Source: Minisyncoccota bacterium
GTDB lineage: Bacteria > Patescibacteriota > Minisyncoccia > Phycocordibacterales > UBA9973
DNA length: 64,000 bases
Assembly (NCBI GenBank): GCA_028718635.1
Contig: JAQULK010000001.1
Coordinates: 479,755 to 543,754, forward strand
Reading direction: 5' to 3'
Part shown: piece after piece, positions 1,819 to 41,617 of the stretch
How the letters are laid out: every line of letters begins with the position of its first letter
Position numbering within the stretch: the stretch's first letter is position 1
Position numbers and translations under genes: made by a program
Notes under the pieces: model-generated
Seen by the model: the letters and a program-made list of their open reading frames with translations, nothing else
Databases searched by the model: none
What the model was told of the DNA's origin: nothing

Positions 1819-2832
1819 ATGGCATTCTTTTCAAATAAATTAGGGATAGATTTAGGAACGGCTAATACGCTGGTATTTATGCCTGGTAAAGGCATCGTTT
1901 TAAACGAGCCTTCAGTTGTGGCAGTTTCTGAACAAGATAATAAAATTATAGCGATTGGTTTTGAAGCAAAAGACATGATAGGTAAAACCCCGGAATCTAT
2001 TATTACTTATTGTCCAATGAAAGATGGAGTTATAGCAGACTATCGAGTTACTGAAGCAATGCTCCGTTATTTTATTGGGAAAGCGATGGGTAAATTTAAT
2101 TTTTTTAAACCCGATGTAATGATTTCTGTTCCTGCTGGGGTGACTTCTACTGAAAGAAGAGCTGTGATTGAAGCAGCGATACGTGCCGGAGCTAAAAATG
2201 CTTATGTGGTTAAAGAGCCGATATTGGCGGCGATTGGCGCAGGGATTCCAATTTATGAATCTAAAGGCTATATGGTTGTAGACATTGGCGGAGGCACGAC
2301 AGATGTGGCAGTAATTTCACTTGGGGGAATTGTATCTTCTACTTCAGTAAAGTGCGCCGGAAATAAAATAGATCAAGCCATAGCAGATTATATTAAAAAG
2401 ACTTTTAACTTAGCGATCGGTGATAGAACCGCCGAAGAGGTAAAAATTAAAATTGGTGCGGCTGTTCTTTTAGAAGAAGAGCTTCGTGTTACCATAAAAG
2501 GCAGAGATTTTATCCAAGGATTGCCGAGAAGCGCCCAGGTGGGGACTAATGAAATTGCCAAGGCAATAAATGATGAATTGAAACAAATAATAAAAGCTAT
2601 TAAAGATGTCCTTCAAGAAACTCCTCCAGAGCTCGCTTCAGATATTATTGACCATGGGATCATTATGACCGGCGGTTCTTCTCAATTAAGAAATCTTACA
2701 GATTTGGTTTATAGAAAAACCGGAGTCAAAGCTACCCTGGCTGAAGATGCTCTTTTTTGTGTGGTGAAAGGCACAGGCATAGCTCTCGAGCATTTAGATG
2801 TTTATAAAAAAACAGTTTTAAGTAAAAAGTAG
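1819..2832 (+). CDS. mreB: rod shape-determining protein MreB (actin-like ATPase)
   Basis: LGIDLGTANTLV N-terminus, DIGGGTTDVAV phosphate-2 motif, full-length MreB/Mbl similarity. Confidence 0.9.
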   Translation: MAFFSNKLGIDLGTANTLVFMPGKGIVLNEPSVVAVSEQDNKIIAIGFEAKDMIGKTPESIITYCPMKDGVIADYRVTEAMLRYFIGKAMGKFNFFKPDVMISVPAGVTSTERRAVIEAAIRAGAKNAYVVKEPILAAIGAGIPIYESKGYMVVDIGGGTTDVAVISLGGIVSSTSVKCAGNKIDQAIADYIKKTFNLAIGDRTAEEVKIKIGAAVLLEEELRVTIKGRDFIQGLPRSAQVGTNEIAKAINDELKQIIKAIKDVLQETPPELASDIIDHGIIMTGGSSQLRNLTDLVYRKTGVKATLAEDALFCVVKGTGIALEHLDVYKKTVLSKK

Positions 2833-2834
2833 AA

Positions 2835-3548
2835 ATGAATATTTTAGAGCACTTAGATAAAAATAATTTACACCACGCATATTTGATAGAAGGCGCGCGG
2901 GAAGAAATTTTTTTAGAAATTAAGGAATTTTTAAAAAAAATTGACGTAGATACTGTCGGTAATCCTGATTTTGTCAATATTTCAATTGATAATTTCAAAA
3001 TCGATGACGCTTTTGCTTTACGTTCAATGTCGGCTGGTAAAAGTTTTTCTTCTGTAAAAAAAATATTTTTAATTTATGCTAATACTATGTCTATAGATGC
3101 TCAAAATGTTTTACTTAAAATGTTTGAAGAACCGATAGAAAATACACACTTTTTTCTAATAGTGCCGGATGCCAACTTTCTATTGAAAACTTTCATTTCT
3201 AGATTTTATTTAATTTCAGCTAGGCCTTGCCTAGATGAAGAAGAGGCGAAAGAGATAGAAAAATTTATTAAGATGCCATTAAAAAATAGAATCGATTATA
3301 TTAAAGAATTACTTGCCGTGCCTGAGGAAAAAGAGGAGGACATCGCTCCACTTGATTCTGCCCGTTCCAAAGCTTTAAGATTTTTAGATGCATTAGAATT
3401 TGTTTTACATAAAAAAATGTCAAAGGCGGCCTTTGACATTAATCCATTTCTTCATTTTTTCAAAGTCCGAGAATTTCTTCGTATGCCAGGAAGTTCCACA
3501 AAAAGTTTGATGGAATCTGTAGCTTTAATTACACCAAATATGTTATAA
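2835..3548 (+). CDS. holB: DNA polymerase III delta-prime subunit-like (clamp loader AAA+)
   Basis: HAYLIEG motif near N-terminus typical of HolB/delta-prime; size ~237 aa; 3 bp downstream of mreB. Confidence 0.65.
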   Translation: MNILEHLDKNNLHHAYLIEGAREEIFLEIKEFLKKIDVDTVGNPDFVNISIDNFKIDDAFALRSMSAGKSFSSVKKIFLIYANTMSIDAQNVLLKMFEEPIENTHFFLIVPDANFLLKTFISRFYLISARPCLDEEEAKEIEKFIKMPLKNRIDYIKELLAVPEEKEEDIAPLDSARSKALRFLDALEFVLHKKMSKAAFDINPFLHFFKVREFLRMPGSSTKSLMESVALITPNML

Positions 3549-5454: not shown

Positions 5455-6189
5455 ATGCAAAAAACGAAATTGATTCATGAAGTCAGGGCGGTAAAAAGCA
5501 AAAAAGAACTTGCAAATATTATTAAAGCGCAAAGAATCAGCGAAAAAGTTTTGCAAGATGTTTTGAAAATTCTAAAGACTGGAGTGAGCGAAATTGAAAT
5601 CGCTAATTTTATGAAAAGATCTTTTATAAAATACAGCGCACCCATTTTATCTTTTGCACCAATTGTTTCTTTTGGTAAAAATACTGCTGATATTCATCAT
5701 GAACCCGGAAGCGCAAGGTTAAAAGAAGGTGATATGATAATGCTGGATTTTGGATGTACGGTAAACCATTATTGCTCGGATATGACGAGAACTTATTTTT
5801 GGGGAGAGCCTAATAATCGACAAAAGAAAATTTATGAAAGTGTTTTAAAAGCTCAAAATCTCGCTCTAGAAAAAATACGAAAAGGGGAGAGAAGAGGAAA
5901 AATGATAGATAAGGCAGCCAGAGATTTCTTAAATAAAAAATATGGCGCGAAGAAGTTTGCTCATGGTCTTGGTCACGGAGTCGGCACAGTTATCCACGAA
6001 TGGCCGAATTTCAAACCGAAGAGCAAAGACGTAATTCCCACAGGTTGCGTGATGACTGTAGAACCAGGGCTTTATTTTAAAGGTTTTGGCGGAGTACGTA
6101 TAGAAGATATGGTTTTAATAACCAAAAATGGTTATAAGAATCTAACAAATGTGCCGAAAGATTTTAAAAGTGTTATATTAAAATCATGA
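5455..6189 (+). CDS. M24-family metallopeptidase (methionine aminopeptidase / Xaa-Pro peptidase-like)
   Basis: DFGCTVNHYCSDMTRT and HGLGHGVGTVIHEWP metal-ligand motifs of pita-bread fold. Start set at ATG 5455 (MQKTK) because upstream part of track ORF is the palindromic element. Confidence 0.7.
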   Translation: MQKTKLIHEVRAVKSKKELANIIKAQRISEKVLQDVLKILKTGVSEIEIANFMKRSFIKYSAPILSFAPIVSFGKNTADIHHEPGSARLKEGDMIMLDFGCTVNHYCSDMTRTYFWGEPNNRQKKIYESVLKAQNLALEKIRKGERRGKMIDKAARDFLNKKYGAKKFAHGLGHGVGTVIHEWPNFKPKSKDVIPTGCVMTVEPGLYFKGFGGVRIEDMVLITKNGYKNLTNVPKDFKSVILKS

Positions 6190-7151
6190 AGAAGAAATTA
6201 AAAATCGGGGTGTTAATGGGAGGAAAATCAGCGGAGCATGAAGTGTCGCTCAAGTCAGCCAACAATGTGATTAAAGCGTTGGATGAAACAAAGTATCACA
6301 TTACTCCGATAAAAATAAACAAAGACGGAAAATTCGATTTCAACAATCTTAAAAATTTTGATGTTATTTTTCCAGTAATGCATGGACCTTTCGGTGAGGA
6401 CGGCAGTATGCAGGGTCTTTTAAAACTCGCCAGTGTTCCTTTTGTGGGGCCAGGAGTGCTCGGTTCGGCTGTCGGAATGGACAAAGATGTTACCAAAAGA
6501 CTCTTGCGAGATGCTGGTATTCCTATTGGAAAATTTATCACTGTTAAATTTGGCGACAAAATAAATTTTAGTAAAATAAAAAAAGAACTTGGTTTGCCAC
6601 TTTTTATTAAGCCAGCCAATATGGGCTCATCGGTCGGAGTTAGTAAAGTGCGAAATGAAAAAGAATTCAAAAAAGCTCTTGGTGAGGCGTTTAAGTTTGA
6701 CACTAAGGTAATTATTGAAGAATTTATCGATGGACGGGAGATAGAGTGTGCGTTGCTTGGAAATGACATGCCTATGGCATCTATCCCAGGCGAAATTATT
6801 GCCAATCAGGATTTCTATTCTTATGATGCAAAATATATTGATGAAGGATCAGTGGCAGTCATACCAGCAAAAATCGATAAAAAGACCACAAAAAGAATTC
6901 AAGAATTAGCCATCAAAACATTTCAGGCGCTTAATTGCGAAGGAATGAGCAGGGTAGATTTTTTTCTTAAAAAAAATGGGGATATTTTAGTAAATGAGAT
7001 AAATACGATTCCAGGATTTACTGATATCAGCATGTATCCTAAATTATGGGAAGCGAGCGGTGTTCCTGCCTTGAAACTTTTAGACAAGTTGCTCGAGCTT
7101 GCAATAGAAAGATTTGAAAAAGAGCAGAAATTACAAACAACAGTCAAATAA
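6186..7151 (+). CDS. ddl: D-alanine--D-alanine ligase
   Basis: IGVLMGGKSAEHEVSL N-terminus, ATP-grasp body; adjacent to alr. Confidence 0.9.
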   Translation: MKKKLKIGVLMGGKSAEHEVSLKSANNVIKALDETKYHITPIKINKDGKFDFNNLKNFDVIFPVMHGPFGEDGSMQGLLKLASVPFVGPGVLGSAVGMDKDVTKRLLRDAGIPIGKFITVKFGDKINFSKIKKELGLPLFIKPANMGSSVGVSKVRNEKEFKKALGEAFKFDTKVIIEEFIDGREIECALLGNDMPMASIPGEIIANQDFYSYDAKYIDEGSVAVIPAKIDKKTTKRIQELAIKTFQALNCEGMSRVDFFLKKNGDILVNEINTIPGFTDISMYPKLWEASGVPALKLLDKLLELAIERFEKEQKLQTTVK

Positions 7152-19745: not shown

Positions 19746-21473
19746 TTAATACACTTCCTGCTGATAACATTTTTCACAATACACTATTTCAGGCCGATCT
19801 GGGGCATAACTGGTTTCAAATTCAACTTCACATTTACCAGTATGGATATGATCTTCCTTATCACACATACATTGTCTATGCCAGAGCTTAAATGGGTTTC
19901 TTTGAGCGATACGTTGATAATGTCTGCAATTTGGACAAAGTTTCGGGATAGGTAAATTCATTCTTTTGTAAAAAGAAAATTCCTCGGCTATAACCTTAAA
20001 GGCTTCAGTGCATTGATCATTGCATTTCCCTTTGTGCTCGCATTCTATAACCTTACCGATTATTTCTTCTTTTGTGTCGGCAAAATTATCCGGAAGATCT
20101 TTGTTGTTGATTTCGATTTTATAGTTTCTTTCTTCGGTGTCTTTCCATTTGTAACCTTGTTTTAAAGCTTCTTCTTTAGTTAAAGGAAAGTATTCTTGAG
20201 CAATGGTTTCGTTGTAGCAGAAAGGACTTAATTCTGTTGGAAAGAACTCTCCGTATTTGTATATTCTACCTTTACTATCTATGTAGGGCATAGTGTTCAT
20301 ATGCTCTATAATTTTAGGGACTAATTCTTCGTATTGTTCTTTGGTGTATTGTTTGTTTAGGATGCAGTAGGATTTGTTGCGGAGACCGACGCAGGCGAAA
20401 CAATTTGAACATACATAACAAAAATCACAATAAGAAAGTTCATCAGATTCACCGCAAGTATTTGAAAATTTTGTATTAGTATTTTTCCAAAATGATATGT
20501 ATTCATAAGTAAGCTCCATAAATTCACAATAATTTGTATCGTAAACATTGCGACCATCAATCATTCGCATACAATATTTTTCATCTTCACATTTTTTAAC
20601 GTCGAAACAATTGTGAACATTTTTTGATTGAACGATGTTGTTTCCAGTCACGTTTTTGCACTGTATTTCTATGGCAAATTTATGCGGAACATTTCCTTTG
20701 ATTTTTAGAAATTCTTTTTGAATGTTTCTTAGTCCTTCTCTTCCATTTTTAAGCAACTCATTTTTCTTTTCAAGATATTGTTCCTTAGAATATGCTTTAT
20801 TGAAAATGTGATATTTTTGACTGCGCAGTCCTGTACAACCAATACAATCTTGGCAATTTTTGCAGTCAAAACAATAAATAAGGTCAAAAGAATTGGAACA
20901 TTCTTGAGCAAATATAGAATTTGATAATTTTTCGCAATCTATGCATTGGTAACAAAATTGACATTCTCGCGCTAGATGAGTATCAACGCAATTTTTTGAT
21001 TCATAGGGAGACCCATACATACAGTCCTCAATAGCGATGGATCCGAAACAAAGATAAGAATTTTTAACATCGCCAACATAATTGCAATAATCACTATTGT
21101 GAACAAAGTTAGCATTTAAATTTATCCTAGGAACTTTCTCTTGTAATTCCTTGAATTGGATAAAAAAATTCTTAGAGAAATCGTATTGTCTTCCATAAAA
21201 TAAAGCATCCCAATTATCAGACCAATAATAGTCGCGTTCATAAACTTTAAAGGGTTTATCTAAAGAATAAACAGAAATAATATTTTTACCGCTTCCGTCG
21301 CAAGTCCTTTTGTAAAGGGTTCTCTCGTTTCGAAAAACAAAACGACGCTGTAAACGGCAATCTGGGCAAAAAGTCGGAGGAGGTACTTTTATTTTTTGGT
21401 AAAATTTAAAATCCTCCGATTCTATCGTAAAATCTTTTTTACAATTTTGACAGATTTTTGTTTCACTTTGCAT
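19746..21473 (-). CDS. cysteine-rich zinc-ribbon-flanked protein, paralog 1 of 3 (function unknown)
   Basis: 575 aa, ~50 Cys. N-terminal CQNCKKDF...FCPDCRLQRRFVFRNER and C-terminal LCPNCRHYQRIAQRNP...CEKCYQQEVY ribbons. Internal repeats C-x2-C-x2-C-x2-C-x2-C...YCILNKQYTKEQYE. Paralogs at 27689-29458 and 39851-41617. Confidence 0.6.
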   Translation of the reverse strand: MQSETKICQNCKKDFTIESEDFKFYQKIKVPPPTFCPDCRLQRRFVFRNERTLYKRTCDGSGKNIISVYSLDKPFKVYERDYYWSDNWDALFYGRQYDFSKNFFIQFKELQEKVPRINLNANFVHNSDYCNYVGDVKNSYLCFGSIAIEDCMYGSPYESKNCVDTHLARECQFCYQCIDCEKLSNSIFAQECSNSFDLIYCFDCKNCQDCIGCTGLRSQKYHIFNKAYSKEQYLEKKNELLKNGREGLRNIQKEFLKIKGNVPHKFAIEIQCKNVTGNNIVQSKNVHNCFDVKKCEDEKYCMRMIDGRNVYDTNYCEFMELTYEYISFWKNTNTKFSNTCGESDELSYCDFCYVCSNCFACVGLRNKSYCILNKQYTKEQYEELVPKIIEHMNTMPYIDSKGRIYKYGEFFPTELSPFCYNETIAQEYFPLTKEEALKQGYKWKDTEERNYKIEINNKDLPDNFADTKEEIIGKVIECEHKGKCNDQCTEAFKVIAEEFSFYKRMNLPIPKLCPNCRHYQRIAQRNPFKLWHRQCMCDKEDHIHTGKCEVEFETSYAPDRPEIVYCEKCYQQEVY

Positions 21474-25502: not shown

Positions 25503-27020
25503 TTAATGTTTAAAATGTCGAAAGCCAGTCGTTACCATCGCCATATTATATTTATTCGCCATATCAATCGATGCTTGATCATTTTTCGAGCCTCCAGGAT
25601 GAATTACCGCGCTTACACCCTCTTCTCCTGCTAACTCTACGCAATCAGGAAATGGAAAGAATGCTTCAGAGGACATCACTGCGCCTTTGAGAGAAAAATT
25701 AAATTTTTTAGCTTTATCGACAGCTTGCTTTAAGGCATCAATGCGAGAAGTTTGCCCGCAACCCATCGCTAAAAGCGTCCCATCTTTTACTAAAGCAATA
25801 GAATTAGATTTTAAATGTTTTGTAATTACTGCAGCTACAAGCAAGTCTTTTTTTTCTTGATCCGTCGGTTCACGTTTTGTTGTTACTTTTAAATCTTCTT
25901 CAGTTTCAATATGCGTGTCTCGATCTTGAGAAAGAATTCCGGTAAAACAAGTTCGGTTTTGTTTTTGTGCAAGGATTGGTTTCTGCCATTTCAAAATTCT
26001 GCAATCTTTTTTCTCCATTAATATATCGAGCGCTTCTTTAGAAAAGTCTGGCGCGATGATTACTTCTACGAAAAGTTTTTGTTCTTTGATAAGCTTAGTA
26101 ATGTCTTCTTCTATGGTTCTGTTGGATGCCAAAATTCCACCAAAAGCTGAAAGCGGATCTGCGTTATAAGCTGCTTGATATGCTTCAAATAAATGCCCTT
26201 CTTCTCTAACTGCTAGACCGCAAGTATTCATATGTTTTACGATAGCAAAAGCAGGATCTTTAAAATCATAAACAGCCATAATGGCAGCCTCTGTATCTAT
26301 AAGATTGTTATAGGAAAGTTCTTTTCCGTGAAGTTGGATAAAACTTTTTTCTAGATTCCCGATAAATTCAGCTTTCTGGTGCGGATTTTCTCCATAACGC
26401 AATTTTTTTCCTTGAAAATATGCACGAATAGCATTGTCGTAAGCGCTCGTCACCTCAAAAGCATCACCTGCAAATTTTTTACGTTCTTCTAAAGTTGTTT
26501 CTGTGCCTTTTTTAAGTATCTCTGCTAATTCCTGATACTGATTTTTAGAAGGAATAACTACAACATCATTAAAGTTCTTCGCCGCTGCACGAATTAGAGA
26601 TATTCCGCCGATATCTATTTTTTCTATTATTTCTTCCTCGCCCGTCGAAGCATTGGCGAAGGAGGGCTCGTTTTCATATCTTTCTAAAGTTTCTTCGAAT
26701 GGATACAGATCCACGATTACTAAATCAATATTCTCTATGTTGTGTTCTTTCTTTTCTTTCTGATCGTCAACGTTATCTCGGCGATTCAAAATTCCGCCGA
26801 AAATTTGTGGTTGTAGTGTTTTTACTCTACCACCAAATAAAGCAGGATAATTGGTGATTTCTTCCACTTCAGTCACTGGCACGCCAAGCTTGCGAATAAA
26901 TTCTGCAGTCCCGCCGGTCGAAATAATTTTTACATTATGCTTGGCCAGAAGCTTAACAATTTCTTCTAGTCCATCTTTATTAAAAACTGAAATAAGCGCC
27001 GTTGTAATTTTTTTATTCAT
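25503..27020 (-). CDS. purH: bifunctional AICAR transformylase / IMP cyclohydrolase
   Basis: MGS-like N-domain (ALISVFNKDGL...STGGTA) and AICARFT domain. Confidence 0.9.
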   Translation of the reverse strand: MNKKITTALISVFNKDGLEEIVKLLAKHNVKIISTGGTAEFIRKLGVPVTEVEEITNYPALFGGRVKTLQPQIFGGILNRRDNVDDQKEKKEHNIENIDLVIVDLYPFEETLERYENEPSFANASTGEEEIIEKIDIGGISLIRAAAKNFNDVVVIPSKNQYQELAEILKKGTETTLEERKKFAGDAFEVTSAYDNAIRAYFQGKKLRYGENPHQKAEFIGNLEKSFIQLHGKELSYNNLIDTEAAIMAVYDFKDPAFAIVKHMNTCGLAVREEGHLFEAYQAAYNADPLSAFGGILASNRTIEEDITKLIKEQKLFVEVIIAPDFSKEALDILMEKKDCRILKWQKPILAQKQNRTCFTGILSQDRDTHIETEEDLKVTTKREPTDQEKKDLLVAAVITKHLKSNSIALVKDGTLLAMGCGQTSRIDALKQAVDKAKKFNFSLKGAVMSSEAFFPFPDCVELAGEEGVSAVIHPGGSKNDQASIDMANKYNMAMVTTGFRHFKH

Positions 27021-27064: not shown

Positions 27065-27343
27065 TTATTTGAAAATAATTTCCCCACCAAATTTTTTTAT
27101 TGCTTCAGAAACCGAATTAAATCTTTCAGAACTTATCGGACGAACCGGAACTTTCGAATCATAAGTTTCTCCCGTTTGTTCTGTTGTAGTTAAATCAAAA
27201 CTATCACTAGGAACTTTATAAATACAAACACGAGGTTCAAATTCCTCTATATTTAAAACAGTAGATCCGTGATACAGAACTGGTGGCCTTTCCTGTTTTC
27301 CTTCAGGTGTTGTTTTTTTGATTTGTACTTGACTTTTTTCCAT
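27065..27343 (-). CDS. hypothetical protein
   Basis: 92-aa ORF, hydrophilic, no motif recognised. Confidence 0.35.
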   Translation of the reverse strand: MEKSQVQIKKTTPEGKQERPPVLYHGSTVLNIEEFEPRVCIYKVPSDSFDLTTTEQTGETYDSKVPVRPISSERFNSVSEAIKKFGGEIIFK

Positions 27344-27360
27344 ATATTTTTATATAATTA

Positions 27361-27420
27361 GGTTACTTTTGGGGTTACCCACTGATCCCCGCTTCGGCGG
27401 GGTGACAATTACGAAGAAAG
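27361..27420. other. structured element with C(UUCG)G tetraloop hairpin (ccccgCTTCGGcgggg) and ggttac...ggggttaccc repeat
   Basis: Read from sequence; supplies the last ~12 codons and stop of the MazF-like ORF. Confidence 0.3.
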
Positions 27421-27650
27421 CTACCGATTTTCTTTTTTGAGGTCAATGGTAATCCGATGAAACTATCACTAGATAATTTTCTTAATATAAGTACAGGTCT
27501 TCTGAAGATAATTCCCTTACCACAAGACTCTTTAGCAACATTTAAGCCTACGGACATCCACCAAATTTCACCTTCTTTAAAGAAGAATTTTTGTTCCTTG
27601 ACATCCAATTCTTTTTTAATTTCATTCCATTTATCAAAATCTTTTTCCAT
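27375..27650 (-). CDS. MazF/PemK-like toxin, apparently truncated (possible pseudogene)
   Basis: GEIWWMSVGLNVAKESCGKGIIFRRPVLILRK matches MazF core G-[DE]-I-W...G.E....RP.[VL][VI][LS]; C-terminal third replaced by read-through into hairpin element; no adjacent antitoxin ORF. Confidence 0.4.
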   Translation of the reverse strand: MEKDFDKWNEIKKELDVKEQKFFFKEGEIWWMSVGLNVAKESCGKGIIFRRPVLILRKLSSDSFIGLPLTSKKKIGSFLRNCHPAEAGISG

Positions 27651-27688: not shown

Positions 27689-29458
27689 TTAATAAACTTC
27701 TTGTTGGTAACACTTTTCGCAGTAAACTATTTCCGGTCTGCCAGGCGCATAGGAAGTTTCGAATTCATTTGGACAAGAATCATTTCCGTGAAAATGCTTC
27801 GCAGAATTTTGGTAAATATTATTTTCTGAAGCCCTACCCTTGCACATACATTTTCGATGCCAGAGTTTCAGCGGATTCCTTAAATTAATGCGTTGATAAT
27901 GTCGACAATTCGGACACAATCTAGGCAAAGGCAAATTCATTCTTTTATAAAATTTAAATTCTTCTGGAACTATTTTGAACGCCTCTGTGCATTGCTCTTT
28001 GCATTTACCGCCATGTTCGCAAGCAATAACTTTTCCCACTATATCATCTTTTACCTCATTAATATCGTCTGGAATATTTTTATTTTCTATGTCAACTTTG
28101 TAATTTCTTTCTTCCGTATCCTGCCAAGAATATCCTTTATCTAGAGCTTCTTCCTTTACTAGTGGAAAATACTCTTGCGCGATTGTTTCATTATAAGCAA
28201 AGGGAGATAATTCTGAAGGAAAAAATTCTCCGTATTTGTAAATAATTCCCTTTTTATCTTTATAAGGCATTTTCTCCATATGCTCTATAATTTTTGGCAG
28301 GAGTTTTTCATATTCTTCCTTTGTGTATTGTTTGTTTAAAATGCAATATTGTTTTTTGCGCAAACCCTCGCATCCGAAAATATTTAAACAATTATGACAT
28401 TCCTCACTGTAATAAGTATTTTGATTGCTTAAATTTCTAATACTAAAGGCTGTATTTGATCCGGCAAAACCGTGGGCAACTTCATATATAAGTTCTGCTT
28501 TAAAACCTTGAAAAGAAGTGTCATAACTATCTTTTGTTCCCCGTCTGCAAAAAAATAAATATTTTGAATCCTCTGCTTGGCCGGAAGTGAAAGACATGTG
28601 GACATTTCTAGCTTCCTTTAAATCATCCCCGTCTGAATTAACTGATTTATAAATCCGAGCATATCTATGGGGAAGTTTTGATTCTAACTCCTTTAGCTTT
28701 TGAATATTTTCCAAATGTTTTTTATAACTCCCAATATTTTCTTTTATAAATTTCTCATAATTTTCTTTTGAATATGGTTCATTGAATACGTGACATTGTT
28801 TATTTATGAGCCCGATACAGCCAAAACAATACATACAGTTTCTGCAGTCTATTAAATAATAACTTTCAATGCATTCTTGCGAGTAACGGCTAAAAAATAC
28901 TTTATTCAAACGCGTTGATTCAAAAATCTCATAACTAAATTCTATTTTTGATGAAAAAGCGACGTCCAAGGAATCCTGTGATTCCACCACTTGATTGCCA
29001 AAATATACTCTTTCATTATCTTTTCCTCCGAATAATAAATAGCATTCTTTGAAATCCAAACCGTAATTGCAATAATCGCTCAAAACAAAATTATCCCTGT
29101 AAAGATTTACTCTCGGAACAGATTTTTGAAGTGAATGAAATTGATCAAAAAAAGGAATCGAAAAATCATAATCACGGCCAAAAGTTATCGGATCCCATTT
29201 ATCAGAAAGCCAGCAATCACGACAATAAATTGTATAAGGTCTATCCTTGTGGTATATAGTCAATAATGATTTTTTACATAAAGCGCATTCACGCTTGTAA
29301 AAAACACGATTGTTTCTAAAAAGCAGTCTTCTTTGAAACCTGCAATCAGGGCAAAAAGTTGGCGCCAGCACTTTCATCTTCTCATAAAAATTGAAATCTT
29401 CTTTTTCTACAACAAACTTATTATTGCAATTTTGGCAAATTTTTGTTTCTGATTTCAT
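27689..29458 (-). CDS. cysteine-rich zinc-ribbon-flanked protein, paralog 2 of 3
   Basis: 589 aa; same terminal ribbons (ICQNCNNKF...FCPDCRFQRRLLFRNNR; ...LCPNCRHYQRINLRNP...CEKCYQQEVY) and internal Cys clusters; start overlaps fic stop by 4 bp. Confidence 0.6.
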   Translation of the reverse strand: MKSETKICQNCNNKFVVEKEDFNFYEKMKVLAPTFCPDCRFQRRLLFRNNRVFYKRECALCKKSLLTIYHKDRPYTIYCRDCWLSDKWDPITFGRDYDFSIPFFDQFHSLQKSVPRVNLYRDNFVLSDYCNYGLDFKECYLLFGGKDNERVYFGNQVVESQDSLDVAFSSKIEFSYEIFESTRLNKVFFSRYSQECIESYYLIDCRNCMYCFGCIGLINKQCHVFNEPYSKENYEKFIKENIGSYKKHLENIQKLKELESKLPHRYARIYKSVNSDGDDLKEARNVHMSFTSGQAEDSKYLFFCRRGTKDSYDTSFQGFKAELIYEVAHGFAGSNTAFSIRNLSNQNTYYSEECHNCLNIFGCEGLRKKQYCILNKQYTKEEYEKLLPKIIEHMEKMPYKDKKGIIYKYGEFFPSELSPFAYNETIAQEYFPLVKEEALDKGYSWQDTEERNYKVDIENKNIPDDINEVKDDIVGKVIACEHGGKCKEQCTEAFKIVPEEFKFYKRMNLPLPRLCPNCRHYQRINLRNPLKLWHRKCMCKGRASENNIYQNSAKHFHGNDSCPNEFETSYAPGRPEIVYCEKCYQQEVY

Positions 29459-30114
29459 TTAATTTTTCTTAATCTTTTAAGAATAAAATTTATCATAGGC
29501 TTATGATTTCCAATAGAACCAAAAATACAAGCTTTTATGTAGTCATTTTTTGATTTTGGGCTCCAATCTATCATTTCATAACCAATACTTGAAACCAATA
29601 AATCTAAAAACAATCGAATGGTTCGCCCATTGCCTTCTCGAAAAGGATGTACTGCGTTGTATTCGTTATGAATAAATGCAATTTTATACGCTATGTCATT
29701 TTTTTTATCTTGCTTTTTGGGAATATCTTCCTTCAAGATTTTATCTAAATATTTTAAAGATGAATCTAGGTGGTTAACCGAAGCAAACATCATTTTTCCC
29801 TTTGATATATCGACTTCTCTTTTGCGCCCTGCCCAATCATACAATGTGCTAAGAAAATATTTATGTATAGAAAACAAAAATTTAACATCAAATGTCGCAA
29901 TATCGCGATTCTCTTTTGAAAGAAAAAACTCATAAGCATCTACTAGTAATATAGTTTCAGCATCTTCTAGCTCTTTTTGACTGGAAATACCAAGCTTATT
30001 TTTCAAAACTCCTCCTTCTAGACCAGCACTCTTGTTTGTAATATTATAACGAGAATGCCCTGCCATACTTTTGCAATTTTTTAATGATAAGGTTGTTTTT
30101 TTGGGCGCGAGCAA
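29455..30114 (-). CDS. fic: Fic/Doc (Fido) domain protein
   Basis: Canonical Fic motif HPFREGNGRTIR; 4-bp overlap with downstream cysteine-rich paralog 2. Confidence 0.8.
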   Translation of the reverse strand: MLAPKKTTLSLKNCKSMAGHSRYNITNKSAGLEGGVLKNKLGISSQKELEDAETILLVDAYEFFLSKENRDIATFDVKFLFSIHKYFLSTLYDWAGRKREVDISKGKMMFASVNHLDSSLKYLDKILKEDIPKKQDKKNDIAYKIAFIHNEYNAVHPFREGNGRTIRLFLDLLVSSIGYEMIDWSPKSKNDYIKACIFGSIGNHKPMINFILKRLRKIK

Positions 30115-30228
30115 ATCTAATCCCCTCTATTTTTGAAGAGGCTGAAACAGCATTTTTAATTTGTTTTTTACTAACAAACTTAGATAATATATGATTTTTC
30201 ATATATATATTATAGCATAAAATTTCTC

Positions 30229-31779
30229 TTATTCAAATTCCGTTGTGGCTGGAGGTTTTGGGGTCATATCAAAAAATACACGGACAATACCTTTATGTTT
30301 TGTGAGAGCATTTGTGATTTCATTTACAATTTCTTCCGAGAAGTAATAGCCTTTAGCTGTCATAAAATCCACAGTCTGCACGGCACGGATAGCAAGAGAA
30401 TGTCCGTAAACTCTTTCATCGCCTTTTACGCCAACGGAATTAACCCCAAGAAGAGCGACAATGAGTTGGGAAATATCTTTTGTAACATCGTATTTTTTTA
30501 AAATATCATTTACTGTTTTGTCTGCTTCTCGCACAAGGTCAAGCTTTTCTTTTGAAACTGGCGTACCGACAATTCTTAAAAATAAACCGGGACCAGGGAA
30601 AGGATTACGTTCAGAAATACTTTTTGGAAGTTTAAGTGCGCGAGCAAGTTCTCGAACTTCATATTTAAATAAATTTCTAAAAGGATGCAAGTCTTCCACT
30701 TTCCAATTAAGGCCTACATTGTGATGAGTCTTTATCATTGCTGACTTCCCTGCTTTCCCACTTTCAATAATATCTGTAGCTAAAGTTCCTTGAATTATAT
30801 ACTTTGCGCCGGTTTTTTTAATTTGTTCTTCAAAAATTCTTTGATATACAGTGCGAAACTCAGCTCTTTTTCTCTCTCCATCAATAGTTTTCCCGATATT
30901 TTTTATAAATTCTTTCTCAGTAGAAATTACCTTAAGGTTTTTTATGCCAGCATTTTTAGTATTACTTTTTAATTCTAAAATTTCGTTTTTTCTCAATCCT
31001 CCAGTATCTATGGCGACACAGATGAGCCTACTCCCTAAAACTGGAGCGAGGACGGCAGCTAAAGTAGTGGAATCTACTCCTCCCGAAACTCCCAGGATAA
31101 CTTTTTCATTCCCGCCACGGCGGGCAGGCTTTTTTACAATATTTAAAACTTCTTTTTGAATTTCATGGATTAGATTTGAAGGATTCCAATCTTTCTTACA
31201 GTCAGCAATATCTAAGAAATTCTGCAATATTTTTTTACCTTCTTTTGTATCGGCCACTTCCGGATGAAATTGAATTCCGAGCACCCGATTATTTTTATTG
31301 CTCATGGCGTTTATTCCGCCTGAAGTGGCAATAGAGATAAAACCTTTTGGAAGTTTAGTAACAGTATCTCCGTGGCTTGCCCAGACTTGCGTCTTTTTAG
31401 GAACTCCATTGAAAAGCGGATGAGTTGTGTTTAAGGTAACTAGAGTTGGTCCATATTCACGATGAGCAAGAGGCCTTTCGACTTTTCCGCCATTTTGATG
31501 AGCTAAAAGTTGCATACCATAACAGATTCCTAAAATTAAATATTTATCATTTTTTTCGCTAGTGTTTAGATTTTTTGGCAATCCTGGCGCTCCTTCATTG
31601 TGAACACTCCAATTACTACCTGAGAGAATGACTGCTTTTGGGGTGTTGTTTTTGAGCCATCTGTCTGCTTTATTTGGAGGTAATATAATGCTTCGCACTC
31701 CGAGTTCGCGTAAAGTTCTGCCGATCACTAAAGTGTATTGCGACCCGTAGTCCACAATCAAGATTTGTATATCATTCAT
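30229..31779 (-). CDS. guaA: GMP synthase (glutamine-hydrolysing)
   Basis: GATase1 N-domain (ILGICYGMQL), PP-loop GVSGGVDSTTLA, C-terminal dimerisation. Confidence 0.9.
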   Translation of the reverse strand: MNDIQILIVDYGSQYTLVIGRTLRELGVRSIILPPNKADRWLKNNTPKAVILSGSNWSVHNEGAPGLPKNLNTSEKNDKYLILGICYGMQLLAHQNGGKVERPLAHREYGPTLVTLNTTHPLFNGVPKKTQVWASHGDTVTKLPKGFISIATSGGINAMSNKNNRVLGIQFHPEVADTKEGKKILQNFLDIADCKKDWNPSNLIHEIQKEVLNIVKKPARRGGNEKVILGVSGGVDSTTLAAVLAPVLGSRLICVAIDTGGLRKNEILELKSNTKNAGIKNLKVISTEKEFIKNIGKTIDGERKRAEFRTVYQRIFEEQIKKTGAKYIIQGTLATDIIESGKAGKSAMIKTHHNVGLNWKVEDLHPFRNLFKYEVRELARALKLPKSISERNPFPGPGLFLRIVGTPVSKEKLDLVREADKTVNDILKKYDVTKDISQLIVALLGVNSVGVKGDERVYGHSLAIRAVQTVDFMTAKGYYFSEEIVNEITNALTKHKGIVRVFFDMTPKPPATTEFE

Positions 31780-34864: not shown

Positions 34865-35311
34865 ATGAAATACTTTTTTGGTGGTGGTTCAGAAAAACTG
34901 TCTGAAAGGAAGATAGGAGAAGATGTGGGAGAATTCATTGATTTTATGTTACTCATTCAACATGCTGGCGAAGATATTTTGTTGACCAGTAATCTGTACC
35001 TAATTGAAACAAATCTTCAACTTTTAATTTCATATTTTTGCCACGTTGAACCTATCAATGTTGCTGATATTAATGTTTTGAAAATAATCAACGAAAGGTA
35101 TCAACACATTATCAAAAGAAATGGTTATAAAAAGGCGCAAAAAGAAGAAGAACTGGCAAATCTTCGAAGGGAAATCAGTGAAATCCTTCAAAAAAATTCT
35201 GTTACAATAATTGACATGTGGGATTTTGGATGTAATCCCTTACACTACCATTCTCTCAGAGATTTCCCTCACAACAAAGGAAATGCTTACCTTGCCTATA
35301 TAGGTAAGTAA
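34865..35311 (+). CDS. hypothetical protein (own promoter, strong SD)
   Basis: 148-aa ORF, no motif recognised; unlike neighbouring genes has canonical -35/-10 and GGAGG RBS. Confidence 0.45.
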   Translation: MKYFFGGGSEKLSERKIGEDVGEFIDFMLLIQHAGEDILLTSNLYLIETNLQLLISYFCHVEPINVADINVLKIINERYQHIIKRNGYKKAQKEEELANLRREISEILQKNSVTIIDMWDFGCNPLHYHSLRDFPHNKGNAYLAYIGK

Positions 35312-39850: not shown

Positions 39851-41617
39851 TCAATATACTTCACTTTGATAGCATCGTTCACAATAAACTATCTCTTTCT
39901 TTGCTGAAATATGTCCGGTCTTAAATTCTTCTTTGCATGGTTCGTCTCCATGAAAGTGTTTTATGGTATTTTTGTATATATTAGTTTTATCACTTGAACC
40001 AGCACACATACAAGATCTTTTTTCTAATTTTAATTTCAACCTATCTTCTATTCTTCTTTCAAATCTACATTCATGACACAAGGTCGGAAGCGGAAGATTT
40101 TCTTTTTTATAAAACAAAAACTCATTTTCTAGAATTTTATATGGATTTTTACATTTTTCACATTCTATAACTTCTTTTAGGATTTCATCATCAATTTCAG
40201 TTATTGATTCTGTAAGTTCTGATGCTTTTTTTGTTATTTTATATTCTCCCCTAGGTACATCTATCCATAAATACCCTTTATTTTTTGCCTCAGCCTCAGT
40301 AAGTGGAAAATGTTGTATAGCGACAGTATTATTGTAGCCAAGTGGAGAAAGTTCTATAGGAAAAAATTCTCCGTATTTATATACAAGACCTTGTGAATCC
40401 ACATAGGGCATATCTTCCATGTGTTTTTTTATTTGAGGAATAAGTTTTTCATATTCTTCTTTAGAATATTGCTTATTTAAAATACAATATTGTTTCTTTT
40501 TTAACCCAACACAACCAAAACAATCAGACGAACTAAAAAGATGATGACAGTATTCATTATTTCTTGATGAAGGCCAACAACTACGTGAAAATTTATTATT
40601 ATAGGAATTTTCACCACATTCTAAAGTTTCATAATTTAATTCAGTATGCTCTCCCCAGTTGCAAGAATCATAGTTATCCTTATTTCCTGGTACTTGCATA
40701 TACTGACAATAACGCATATTTTCACTTTCTCTTATTAAATAGCTATCATTTACATTTTTACAATTCGTCACATGAGAACCACTTGAATTTAAATTTTTAA
40801 GACCGTGTTGATATTTTGTCGGCTGAGTTAGCCAAAATAAACGTGCTTTTTTTCTTGCCTCTAAAATTCCAGAAGTAGAATTCAAATTCATTTTCTTTAT
40901 TTCTTTTTCATATTCTTCTTTTGTATATTTTTTATTAAAAATACAATAAGATAATTTACGCAAATTTGCACAACCAAAACAATCATTACATCCTAAGCAA
41001 TTACGACAAAAATAAAGATTATATGATTCTGCGCACATTATAGAAAAATAGCACTGATAACAATTTTCCAACCAAAAACATTCATAACAACGTTCGCAAT
41101 TTTTAATATGAGAATTATCAACACAATTCTTGCAGGAATCTACGCCATTTCCATACATACAATCCTCAGAATAATTTGAATTCACAATCAAATAACTGTT
41201 TTTTATATAAGACGCATTAAAAACATACGGACTATTATTAATAAAAGTATTATTAAAATTATATACAGGTACAACCTTACTTAATTCTTCTATTTGTTGA
41301 AAAAATGGCTTAGTAAAGTCAATATCTAAAGCATGCTCCATTGGATCCCAATTATCTCCAAACCATTCTTCTCGAGTCATTATTTTTCTTCCACTTTCTG
41401 CAGGGTAAGTAGAGAACATATTTTCACCCGTTAAAAAATTTTTTACTTTGAATAATTTTCTTTCATTTCTCCAAGCTAACCGTCTTTGTGCGCGACACAT
41501 AGGACAAAAAGTTGGAGGTGGAACCTTCATTTTTTCATAGAAATTAAAATCCTCCGGTTCTATTGGGAAATTTTCCTTGCAGTTTTGACATATTCTATTT
41601 TCTGTAATATACGCCAT
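39851..41617 (-). CDS. cysteine-rich zinc-ribbon-flanked protein, paralog 3 of 3
   Basis: 588 aa; RICQNCKENF...FCPMCRAQRRLAWRNER N-ribbon; LCHECRFERRIEDR...CERCYQSEVY C-ribbon; C-x2-C clusters and YCILNKQYSKEEYEKL repeat. Confidence 0.6.
   Translation of the reverse strand: MAYITENRICQNCKENFPIEPEDFNFYEKMKVPPPTFCPMCRAQRRLAWRNERKLFKVKNFLTGENMFSTYPAESGRKIMTREEWFGDNWDPMEHALDIDFTKPFFQQIEELSKVVPVYNFNNTFINNSPYVFNASYIKNSYLIVNSNYSEDCMYGNGVDSCKNCVDNSHIKNCERCYECFWLENCYQCYFSIMCAESYNLYFCRNCLGCNDCFGCANLRKLSYCIFNKKYTKEEYEKEIKKMNLNSTSGILEARKKARLFWLTQPTKYQHGLKNLNSSGSHVTNCKNVNDSYLIRESENMRYCQYMQVPGNKDNYDSCNWGEHTELNYETLECGENSYNNKFSRSCWPSSRNNEYCHHLFSSSDCFGCVGLKKKQYCILNKQYSKEEYEKLIPQIKKHMEDMPYVDSQGLVYKYGEFFPIELSPLGYNNTVAIQHFPLTEAEAKNKGYLWIDVPRGEYKITKKASELTESITEIDDEILKEVIECEKCKNPYKILENEFLFYKKENLPLPTLCHECRFERRIEDRLKLKLEKRSCMCAGSSDKTNIYKNTIKHFHGDEPCKEEFKTGHISAKKEIVYCERCYQSEVY

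Follow-up and report, generated by a model that had tools for sequence, protein, structure and literature searches.

A probable class I Fic toxin-antitoxin module with a 52-residue antitoxin candidate, and its recurrent cysteine-rich neighbour, in a Patescibacterial purine cluster

Among the purine-biosynthesis genes of a Minisyncoccota bacterium lies a gene for a Fic-domain protein whose stop codon is interlocked, as ATGA, with the start of a 589-residue cysteine-rich protein. The 64,000 nucleotides analysed (contig JAQULK010000001.1, positions 479,755 to 543,754 of the forward strand) are referred to throughout as the window. An initial annotation of this stretch took the overlap as a sign that the cysteine-rich protein might be a regulator or target of Fic, or an antitoxin-like partner. 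Our analysis points elsewhere. The locus is probably a FicT/FicA-type toxin-antitoxin module belonging to Fic class I and comparable to VbhT/VbhA, in which the antitoxin-like partner, as far as sequence can tell, is the product of a 52-amino-acid open reading frame (ORF) immediately upstream of Fic and not the cysteine-rich protein, whose gene is a recurrent but dispensable neighbour. The class I definition, its motif, the salt bridge between glutamate and R2, the ficA-ficT operon order and the gyrase and topoisomerase IV target of VbhT have been described (PMC5033356). Those features of the class that can be tested on sequence are all present here: a Fic domain, an AMPylation-type motif, an ORF upstream, [S/T]xxxE[G/N] within it and no internal inhibitory helix in the Fic protein.

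The Fic protein (203 residues), which has an identical counterpart in public data named 'Fic family protein' (Candidatus Pacebacteria bacterium) on a contig of 671,958 bp, is a bare Fic domain, because its best PDB match, VbhT (3zcb/3shg, E 2e-23), spans residues 16-198. The best named NCBIfam match is again VbhT (E 9e-31), Pfam Fic (PF02661) is matched at E 1e-14, above the gathering score, and further PDB matches are to 8wt0_A (E 1e-16) and 5jff/5jfz (E 3e-13). The HPFREGNGR motif recognised in the initial annotation is indeed there, as part of the full catalytic motif HPFREGNGRTIR (29649-29614, residues 140-151). Its H, P, F, R, G, N, G, R, T and R151 never vary across 28 aligned homologues, position 144 alternates between E and D, and the motif is of the AMPylation type and not the Doc type. 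The gene itself is probably shorter than the span of 29455-30114 first given to it: ATG at 30066 is preferred as the true start, and the listed TTG at 30114 lies 48 nucleotides (nt) too far upstream, because the public protein, the lengths of some 120 homologues (199-216 residues, mostly 201-203) and their M-x-x-x-S-R-Y N-terminus, with M1, S5, R6 and Y7 invariant, all agree on it. The VbhT alignment also starts at the position that matches this ATG. A metagenome scan for Fic returned six loci.

An inhibitory helix within Fic itself was one of the points that the initial annotation would have counted against its proposal. The sole [ST]xxxE[GN] within the window protein, SAGLEG at residues 13-18, is kept in one of the 28 homologues and is a chance match; two other homologues hold isolated matches elsewhere, and no conserved N- or C-terminal inhibitory motif is found among the 28. 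Since the VbhT and Pfam matches span nearly all of the 203 residues, there is no room for an inhibitory extension at either end, and the lack of a conserved internal motif keeps Fic out of class II and class III alike. From the cysteine-rich protein the motif is absent throughout, so that the search for (S/T)xxxE(G/N) proposed with the initial annotation gave a chance match in one of the two proteins for which it was intended, nothing in the other, and found its object in a third.

That third protein, the 52-residue product MKNHILSKFVSKKQIKNAVSASSKIEGIRFARAQKNNLIIKKLQKYGRAFSL, is listed at NCBI as hypothetical protein PHT16_02795 (MDD5721348.1), and several assemblies have independent gene calls for it. 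The ORF shares its final 23 nt with the start of Fic, in a different frame (30044-30066), and it carries S22-S-K-I-E26-G27 (30139-30122), an exact [S/T]xxxE[G/N]. Thirteen such sequences were gathered from related Patescibacterial Fic loci, with Fic identity running from 84% down to 53%; S22, K24, E26 and G27 are invariant in every one, and the overlap with Fic is 23 nt in 12 of the loci and 35 nt in the remaining one. The small ORF also precedes Fic in the loci L103-L105 and L009, so that every related locus examined has this arrangement. Over the 44 codons outside the Fic overlap, the median pairwise ratio of non-synonymous to synonymous substitution (dN/dS) is 0.18, which marks the ORF as coding sequence under constraint. 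Its identity falls together with that of Fic, from 73-81% (Fic 68-84%) to 44-58% (Fic 53-56%). Among 1.84 billion representative proteins there are 11 relatives, of which 10 have S-x-x-x-E-G; all 11 run into GRAF[SA] at their end, because the overlap with Fic requires it, with nine stopping one residue on and two extending for five. Viral contigs are essentially devoid of the small ORF and of the cysteine-rich family alike.

To what known family might so small a protein belong? NCBIfam, PADLOC and PHROGs gave no match for it, and it has no match to Phd, to DUF2559 (the YhfG family) or to any other Pfam family; a lone exception is one family member that matches DUF4172 (E 0.002), which we take to be an N-terminal domain of Fic proteins. 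A route by way of an intermediate profile was more productive. It was built from motif-bearing small ORFs that immediately precede class I-like Fic genes of distant loci from other phyla. A contig scan with the generic pattern HPFR[ED]GNG had given, among the matches listed, only distant Fic loci (at most 48% identity) and no close Patescibacterial ones, and these loci served solely as a source of FicA-like ORFs. Motif-bearing upstream ORFs were present in 27 of 78 distant loci, and 17 were aligned. The resulting profile matches a DUF2559 chain from a Fic complex in the PDB (8wt0_B, E 4e-11) and also VbhA (3zc7_B, 3shg_B) at E 0.012-0.019. Compared with it by hhalign (probability 76%, E 2.3e-5), the Patescibacterial family aligns motif on motif, with AVSSSSKIEGI lying over NyaaSmrLEGi.

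The module also seems to bring its own promoter. An extended -10 box, TGcTATAAT (30217-30209), stands 6 nt before the ATG of the small ORF, and 16 nt separate its TATAAT from a -35 element, TTGAAT (30236-30231), which overlaps the guaA stop codon; together they give 10 of 12 consensus matches with the TG extension present. Support for this site rests on conservation and not on the promoter scan, because the scan as a whole, with 19 sites against an expectation of 19, did not rise above shuffles. TGCTATA(A/C)T is found 6-8 nt before the small-ORF ATG in nine of 13 related loci regardless of the gene upstream, and in L007 a variant box, TGATATGAT, occupies the equivalent place. We infer that the module is expressed from a promoter of its own and that the antitoxin mRNA is leaderless or nearly so. 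The sequence just before the cysteine-rich start holds no comparable site, for which reason the cysteine-rich gene is probably transcribed together with the module in the window genome.

On this evidence the following course of events can be proposed. The small ORF and Fic would probably share one mRNA with coupled translation, given their 23-nt overlap, and the small protein would, as elsewhere in the family, supply the inhibitory helix. The invariant Glu26 of its S-S-K-I-E-G would form a pair with R2, the second arginine in HPFREGNGRTIR, and so block productive binding of ATP. Were the small protein lost, Fic would be free to AMPylate a cellular target which, if VbhT and other FicT toxins are a guide, might be DNA gyrase or topoisomerase IV; toxicity, inhibition and target are all carried over from the family. 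In this genome the cysteine-rich gene is joined to the module through the ATGA overlap at the Fic stop; it is neither the antitoxin nor required by the module.

How constant, then, is this neighbour? Adjacency was followed in ten informative genomes with a Fic at least 67% identical to that of the window, and in eight of them a cysteine-rich family member or a remnant of one abuts the module. With a few copies among about 700 genes, adjacency by chance would be expected at roughly 1-2% (a rough estimate), so the association is not random. The copy lies directly downstream, intact and with the ATGA overlap, in the window (Fic 100%), directly upstream of the small ORF in L090 (83%), directly upstream in L001 (81%) and L003/L091 (77%), and on both sides in L007 (73%, with a TAAATG downstream junction) and L092 (68%, with ATGA). 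In L103 (78%) the downstream ATGA leads into an 82-residue remnant (6606-6851), a mosaic in which pieces from the N-terminus, the middle and the C-terminus of the cysteine-rich protein are joined in frame, and in L095 (67%) a disrupted upstream copy accompanies a 19-codon stub downstream of ATGA (about 5615-5675); Fic and the small ORF are intact beside the decayed downstream copies of both. L104/L105 (84%), the closest relative with usable flanks, has no cysteine-rich neighbour, its module lying between an unrelated 255-residue protein upstream and an epimerase downstream, and L089 (81%) has no adjacent copy either. In more distant relatives (Fic 48-56% identical; L096, L097, L099, L009) the small ORF is present and a cysteine-rich neighbour is not. 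Conservation of the pairing, which the initial annotation had made part of its test, thus extends across a narrow clade and fails in L104/L105, L089 and the relatives beyond.

Across genomes the adjacent copy is more often upstream than downstream, and the outer flanks of the module vary between guaA, rpoC/dnaG, GrpE, SIMPL, a TrwB-like gene and an ABC transporter. A neighbour-joining tree scatters the Fic-adjacent copies among non-adjacent ones in several subfamilies. The closest orthologues of the window copy (70-77% identical) have other surroundings and no Fic beside them, one of them lying on the contig that bears the L001 module and another between purL and purQ. Because its position varies, the copies belong to mixed subfamilies, two downstream copies are eroded and two genomes have none, the module is best seen as independent of this neighbour. 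The simplest account is that adjacency is the legacy of an ancestral order of small ORF, Fic and cysteine-rich gene in one Paceibacteria clade, placed in or next to cysteine-rich paralogues arrayed in tandem (such arrays are evident in L091 and L007) and later reshuffled or eroded. An antitoxin role for the cysteine-rich protein can be set aside: it lacks the motif, its Fic-adjacent copies form no clade, and downstream copies are decayed or absent beside intact modules.

Several points weigh against the class I reading. Gyrase or topoisomerase IV as a target is pure analogy; EcFicT, the founding member, has no demonstrated activity (PMC5033356), and to speak of a toxin may overstate the case. 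Neither the small ORF nor its 13-sequence profile finds a usable match in PDB or Pfam, and the link to FicA/VbhA consists of a 30-column profile alignment, the motif and the position of the gene. Adjacency at eight in ten against an expectation of 1-2%, moreover, means that some functional or mechanistic link with the cysteine-rich gene may exist. A challenge to the antitoxin candidate itself would be that the small ORF is a leader peptide or a spurious frame, kept open by the overlapping Fic start and promoter, with Fic regulated otherwise or not at all. Its last seven codons are indeed constrained by the Fic N-terminus, the family finds no direct Pfam or PDB counterpart, a bare motif would be expected by chance in an estimated 5% or so of 52-residue peptides, and SAGLEG in Fic shows that such chance matches occur. 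Purifying selection outside the overlap, four invariant motif residues in mid-peptide and far from it, retention of the ORF down to 53% Fic identity, independent gene calls and a FicA-type profile match centred on the motif nevertheless make this explanation highly improbable.

The remaining two alternatives concern the cysteine-rich gene. It might be the third component of a single system, its product being the AMPylation target of Fic or a sensor or scaffold that governs release of the antitoxin, which would account for the translational coupling and the frequent adjacency: in eight of the ten genomes a family member or remnant stays at the module despite differing outer flanks, four genomes (the window, L092, L095 and L103) share the identical ATGA junction, and the cysteine-rich start has no promoter-like site of its own before it. 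The copy may nonetheless stand upstream only, downstream only or on both sides, it comes from different subfamilies with identities that do not follow that of Fic, it is whittled down to 19 or 82 codons beside intact modules or missing altogether, and most members of the family, two of the three in the window included, have no Fic nearby. Paralogues elsewhere in the genome could act in trans, which would save the idea in a weakened form; taken as a whole we regard it as quite unlikely. Possible, if doubtful, is a mobile cassette made up of the small ORF and Fic and moving by homologous recombination, with the conserved ends of cysteine-rich genes as arms; adjacency would then reflect the mode of movement and not function. 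Its context differs in nearly every genome and the small ORF, Fic and promoter stay conserved; typically, as in L007 and L092, the module has a cysteine-rich 3' end on one side and the 5' end of a second such gene on the other; L095 and L103 retain partial pieces at this junction; conservation within the family is highest in its N- and C-terminal parts; and no flanking direct or inverted repeats were found around the module and no transposase nearby. Set against these, the upstream flank in the window is guaA, with a 26-nt spacer and no cysteine-rich remnant in it, L104 and L089 have no family sequence at either junction, and the independent genomes are few, with transfer itself not directly evidenced. 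That FicTA and this cysteine-rich, zinc-binding family are mechanistically linked in one Paceibacteria clade at all, whether as substrates or sensors or through portable homology arms, we consider unlikely; if the homology-arm variant were true, the cassette would hop between tandem paralogues and between genomes.

The cysteine-rich family is of interest in its own right. It is a Paceibacteria family, mostly without Fic, with more than 7,756 homologous clusters at 90% identity, all of them 'hypothetical' and none with a Pfam domain. Three members were found in the window, bearing out the paralogy that had been noticed there (Table 1), and all three, each of about 580 residues, lie inside the purine cluster. 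Each paralogue, paralogue 3 among them, has orthologues of its own at 65-90% identity; such separate orthologues imply that the paralogues are old subfamilies under strong constraint. For paralogue 2, an AlphaFold2 model from a 42-sequence alignment (mean predicted local distance difference test score 78.9, predicted template modelling score 0.76) suggests that each end is a zinc-ribbon or treble-clef module and that the protein also has two beta-solenoid segments. Fold comparison of the model gave no significant match; a weak, sub-threshold match to zf_Tbcl (treble-clef) falls at its N-terminus (E 0.003). PADLOC, PHROGs and NCBIfam gave no match, and the protein shows nothing antitoxin-like. 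Nor does the ATGA overlap set it apart, because four of 46 same-strand neighbouring gene pairs in the window overlap by exactly 4 nt (gaps are at most 30 nt in 27 of the 46). The overlap is real, with the Fic TGA at 29457-29455 and the cysteine-rich ATG at 29458-29456 on the minus strand, as the initial annotation had it. The hope that the pairing would open up the function of the whole family has not been borne out: it provides no real handle, because its conservation is partial, the copies come from mixed subfamilies and orthologues occur without Fic.

Other members of the family were seen along the way. On an unrelated 813-kb Paceibacterota contig (L102, 6001-7710) one lies between purL and purQ with a 4-nt overlap with purL, and in L100 (7778-9483) a split copy directly follows an intact one. 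A role as a stand-in for PurS was considered and rejected, the 1005-residue PurL already having an N-terminal extension before its linker domain. In related genomes, TrwB/TraG-like (DUF87) ATPases are repeatedly seen close to the Fic module and cysteine-rich genes (L001 1-2095 and 8218-8606, L003 4624-6186, L095 8362-10618), and some of them have a zf_Tbcl_2 zinc finger. In the distant relative L097 the module is preceded, at 1.5 kb, by a second and larger Fic of class II-like type (2455-3537; Fic_N plus Fic), which adjoins a phage-type integrase.

Within the window (35.5% G+C) the minus strand reads guaA, 52-residue ORF, Fic, cysteine-rich paralogue 2, MazF-like fragment, 92-residue ORF and purH, and some 25 kb around the module form a purine-biosynthesis cluster of purL, purQ, purF, purN, purD, purA, guaB, guaA, purH, purE, purM, purC and purB. 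The probable Fic toxin-antitoxin locus sits in purine genes, and a defence-island context is not seen. An Rfam scan of the window found two tRNAs and nothing else. A 148-residue ORF without family match lies on the plus strand between purA and purD (34865-35311).

Table 1. Features of the module and its surroundings in the window, with the evidence or context for each
Feature	Position	Strand	Evidence or context
Promoter-like site of the module	30209-30236	minus	consensus and conservation
FicA/VbhA-like antitoxin candidate, 52 residues	30044-30202	minus	motif, conservation, profile comparison
Predicted toxin-like AMP-transferase Fic (FicT type), PHT16_02790, 203 residues	29455-30066	minus	Pfam, NCBIfam and PDB matches
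ATGA junction of Fic stop TGA and cysteine-rich ATG	29455-29458	minus	sequence
Cysteine-rich paralogue 2, PHT16_02785, 589 residues	27689-29458	minus	family search, AlphaFold2 model
Truncated MazF/PemK-like toxin remnant, PHT16_02780	27375-27650	minus	N-terminal half only
92-residue ORF, hypothetical PHT16_02775	27065-27343	minus	weak DUF6886 match, mid-profile, E 0.042, below threshold
guaA	30229-31779	minus	upstream neighbour of the 52-residue ORF
purH	25503-27020	minus	beyond the 92-residue ORF
Cysteine-rich paralogue 1	19746-21473	minus	52% identical to paralogue 2; directly after purB; no Fic nearby
Cysteine-rich paralogue 3	39851-41617	minus	42% identical to paralogue 2; between purL and purQ; no Fic nearby

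The truncated MazF-like ORF that the initial annotation had picked out downstream is confirmed as such. It matches PHROG 9567 (E 7e-17) over profile positions 5-80 of 144 and covers positions 1-48 of 109 of the Pfam PemK profile, and it has no continuation in other frames and no antitoxin ORF upstream. With half a profile and no adjacent antitoxin gene it was not accepted as a complete MazF/PemK toxin. The 92-residue ORF beside it is possibly another gene fragment, and these two apparent fragments between the cysteine-rich gene and purH (27065-27650) suggest something of a graveyard of accessory genes in the pur cluster. Where the MazF-like frame loses similarity there is a GC-rich perfect hairpin, CCCCGC-cgaa-GCGGGG (27371-27404, minus strand), present as a single copy in the window with no T-run after it, which could mark the breakpoint of a deletion or insertion. 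The toxin-antitoxin flavour first sensed in this insert stands, with the motif in the upstream 52-residue ORF; the part assigned to the cysteine-rich protein does not.

Several consequences follow from reading the locus as class I. The 52-residue 'hypothetical protein' and its Patescibacterial relatives gain a likely function, as candidate FicA-type antitoxins, and class I FicTA modules with a conserved promoter of leaderless type would be counted among the genes of these reduced episymbiont genomes. Proximity to Fic does not annotate the large and strongly conserved cysteine-rich family. The recurrent junction with its decayed remnants leaves a puzzle of how accessory cassettes move in genomes with almost no intergenic space.

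Among known systems, Doc/Phd shares with the module the PF02661 superfamily and an antitoxin gene upstream. Doc has the motif H-x-F-x-[DN]-[AG]-N-K-R and phosphorylates EF-Tu, in contrast to the G-N-G-R (AMPylation-type) motif of the window Fic, and the small ORF matches neither Phd nor any other Pfam family; membership of Doc/Phd was rejected on these grounds. PADLOC's PDC-S04, a candidate single-gene anti-phage family of Fic proteins, matches over the full length (E 3e-51); it is a candidate system only, and the neighbours here are purine-biosynthesis genes and not a defence island. Closer in architecture are EcFicT/EcFicA (Fic/YhfG of E. coli) and the Pseudomonas pair of PDB 8WT0, which we take to be linked to Fic-1/AntF: both have a single-domain Fic of about 200 residues following a gene of 50-60 codons with [S/T]xxxE[G/N]. 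They differ in being only about 30% identical at the level of Fic, and the small ORF, unlike EcFicA/YhfG, is without a DUF2559 match. EcFicT has an N-terminal DPY 'lock' (PMC5033356) where the window Fic family has its invariant S-R-Y. As a separate observation, S5-R6-Y7 (30064-30046; Fic residues 1-7) may match that tyrosine-containing lock.

The nearest counterpart is VbhT/VbhA of Bartonella schoenbuchensis (PDB 3SHG, 3ZC7, 3ZCB), whose toxin is the best match of the window Fic in both PDB and NCBIfam. VbhT differs in its C-terminal BID secretion domain (the NCBIfam model has 419 positions), the window protein ending after the Fic domain, and VbhA is longer at about 62 residues against 52, the window ORF being too diverged for a direct HMMER match. 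The setting differs too, the host here being a Patescibacterium and the module being joined by ATGA to a large cysteine-rich gene. Common to both are the identical HPFREGNGRT core of the catalytic motif and a small gene immediately upstream, with S-x-x-x-E-G-[IL] here answering to ASQRLEGL in VbhA.

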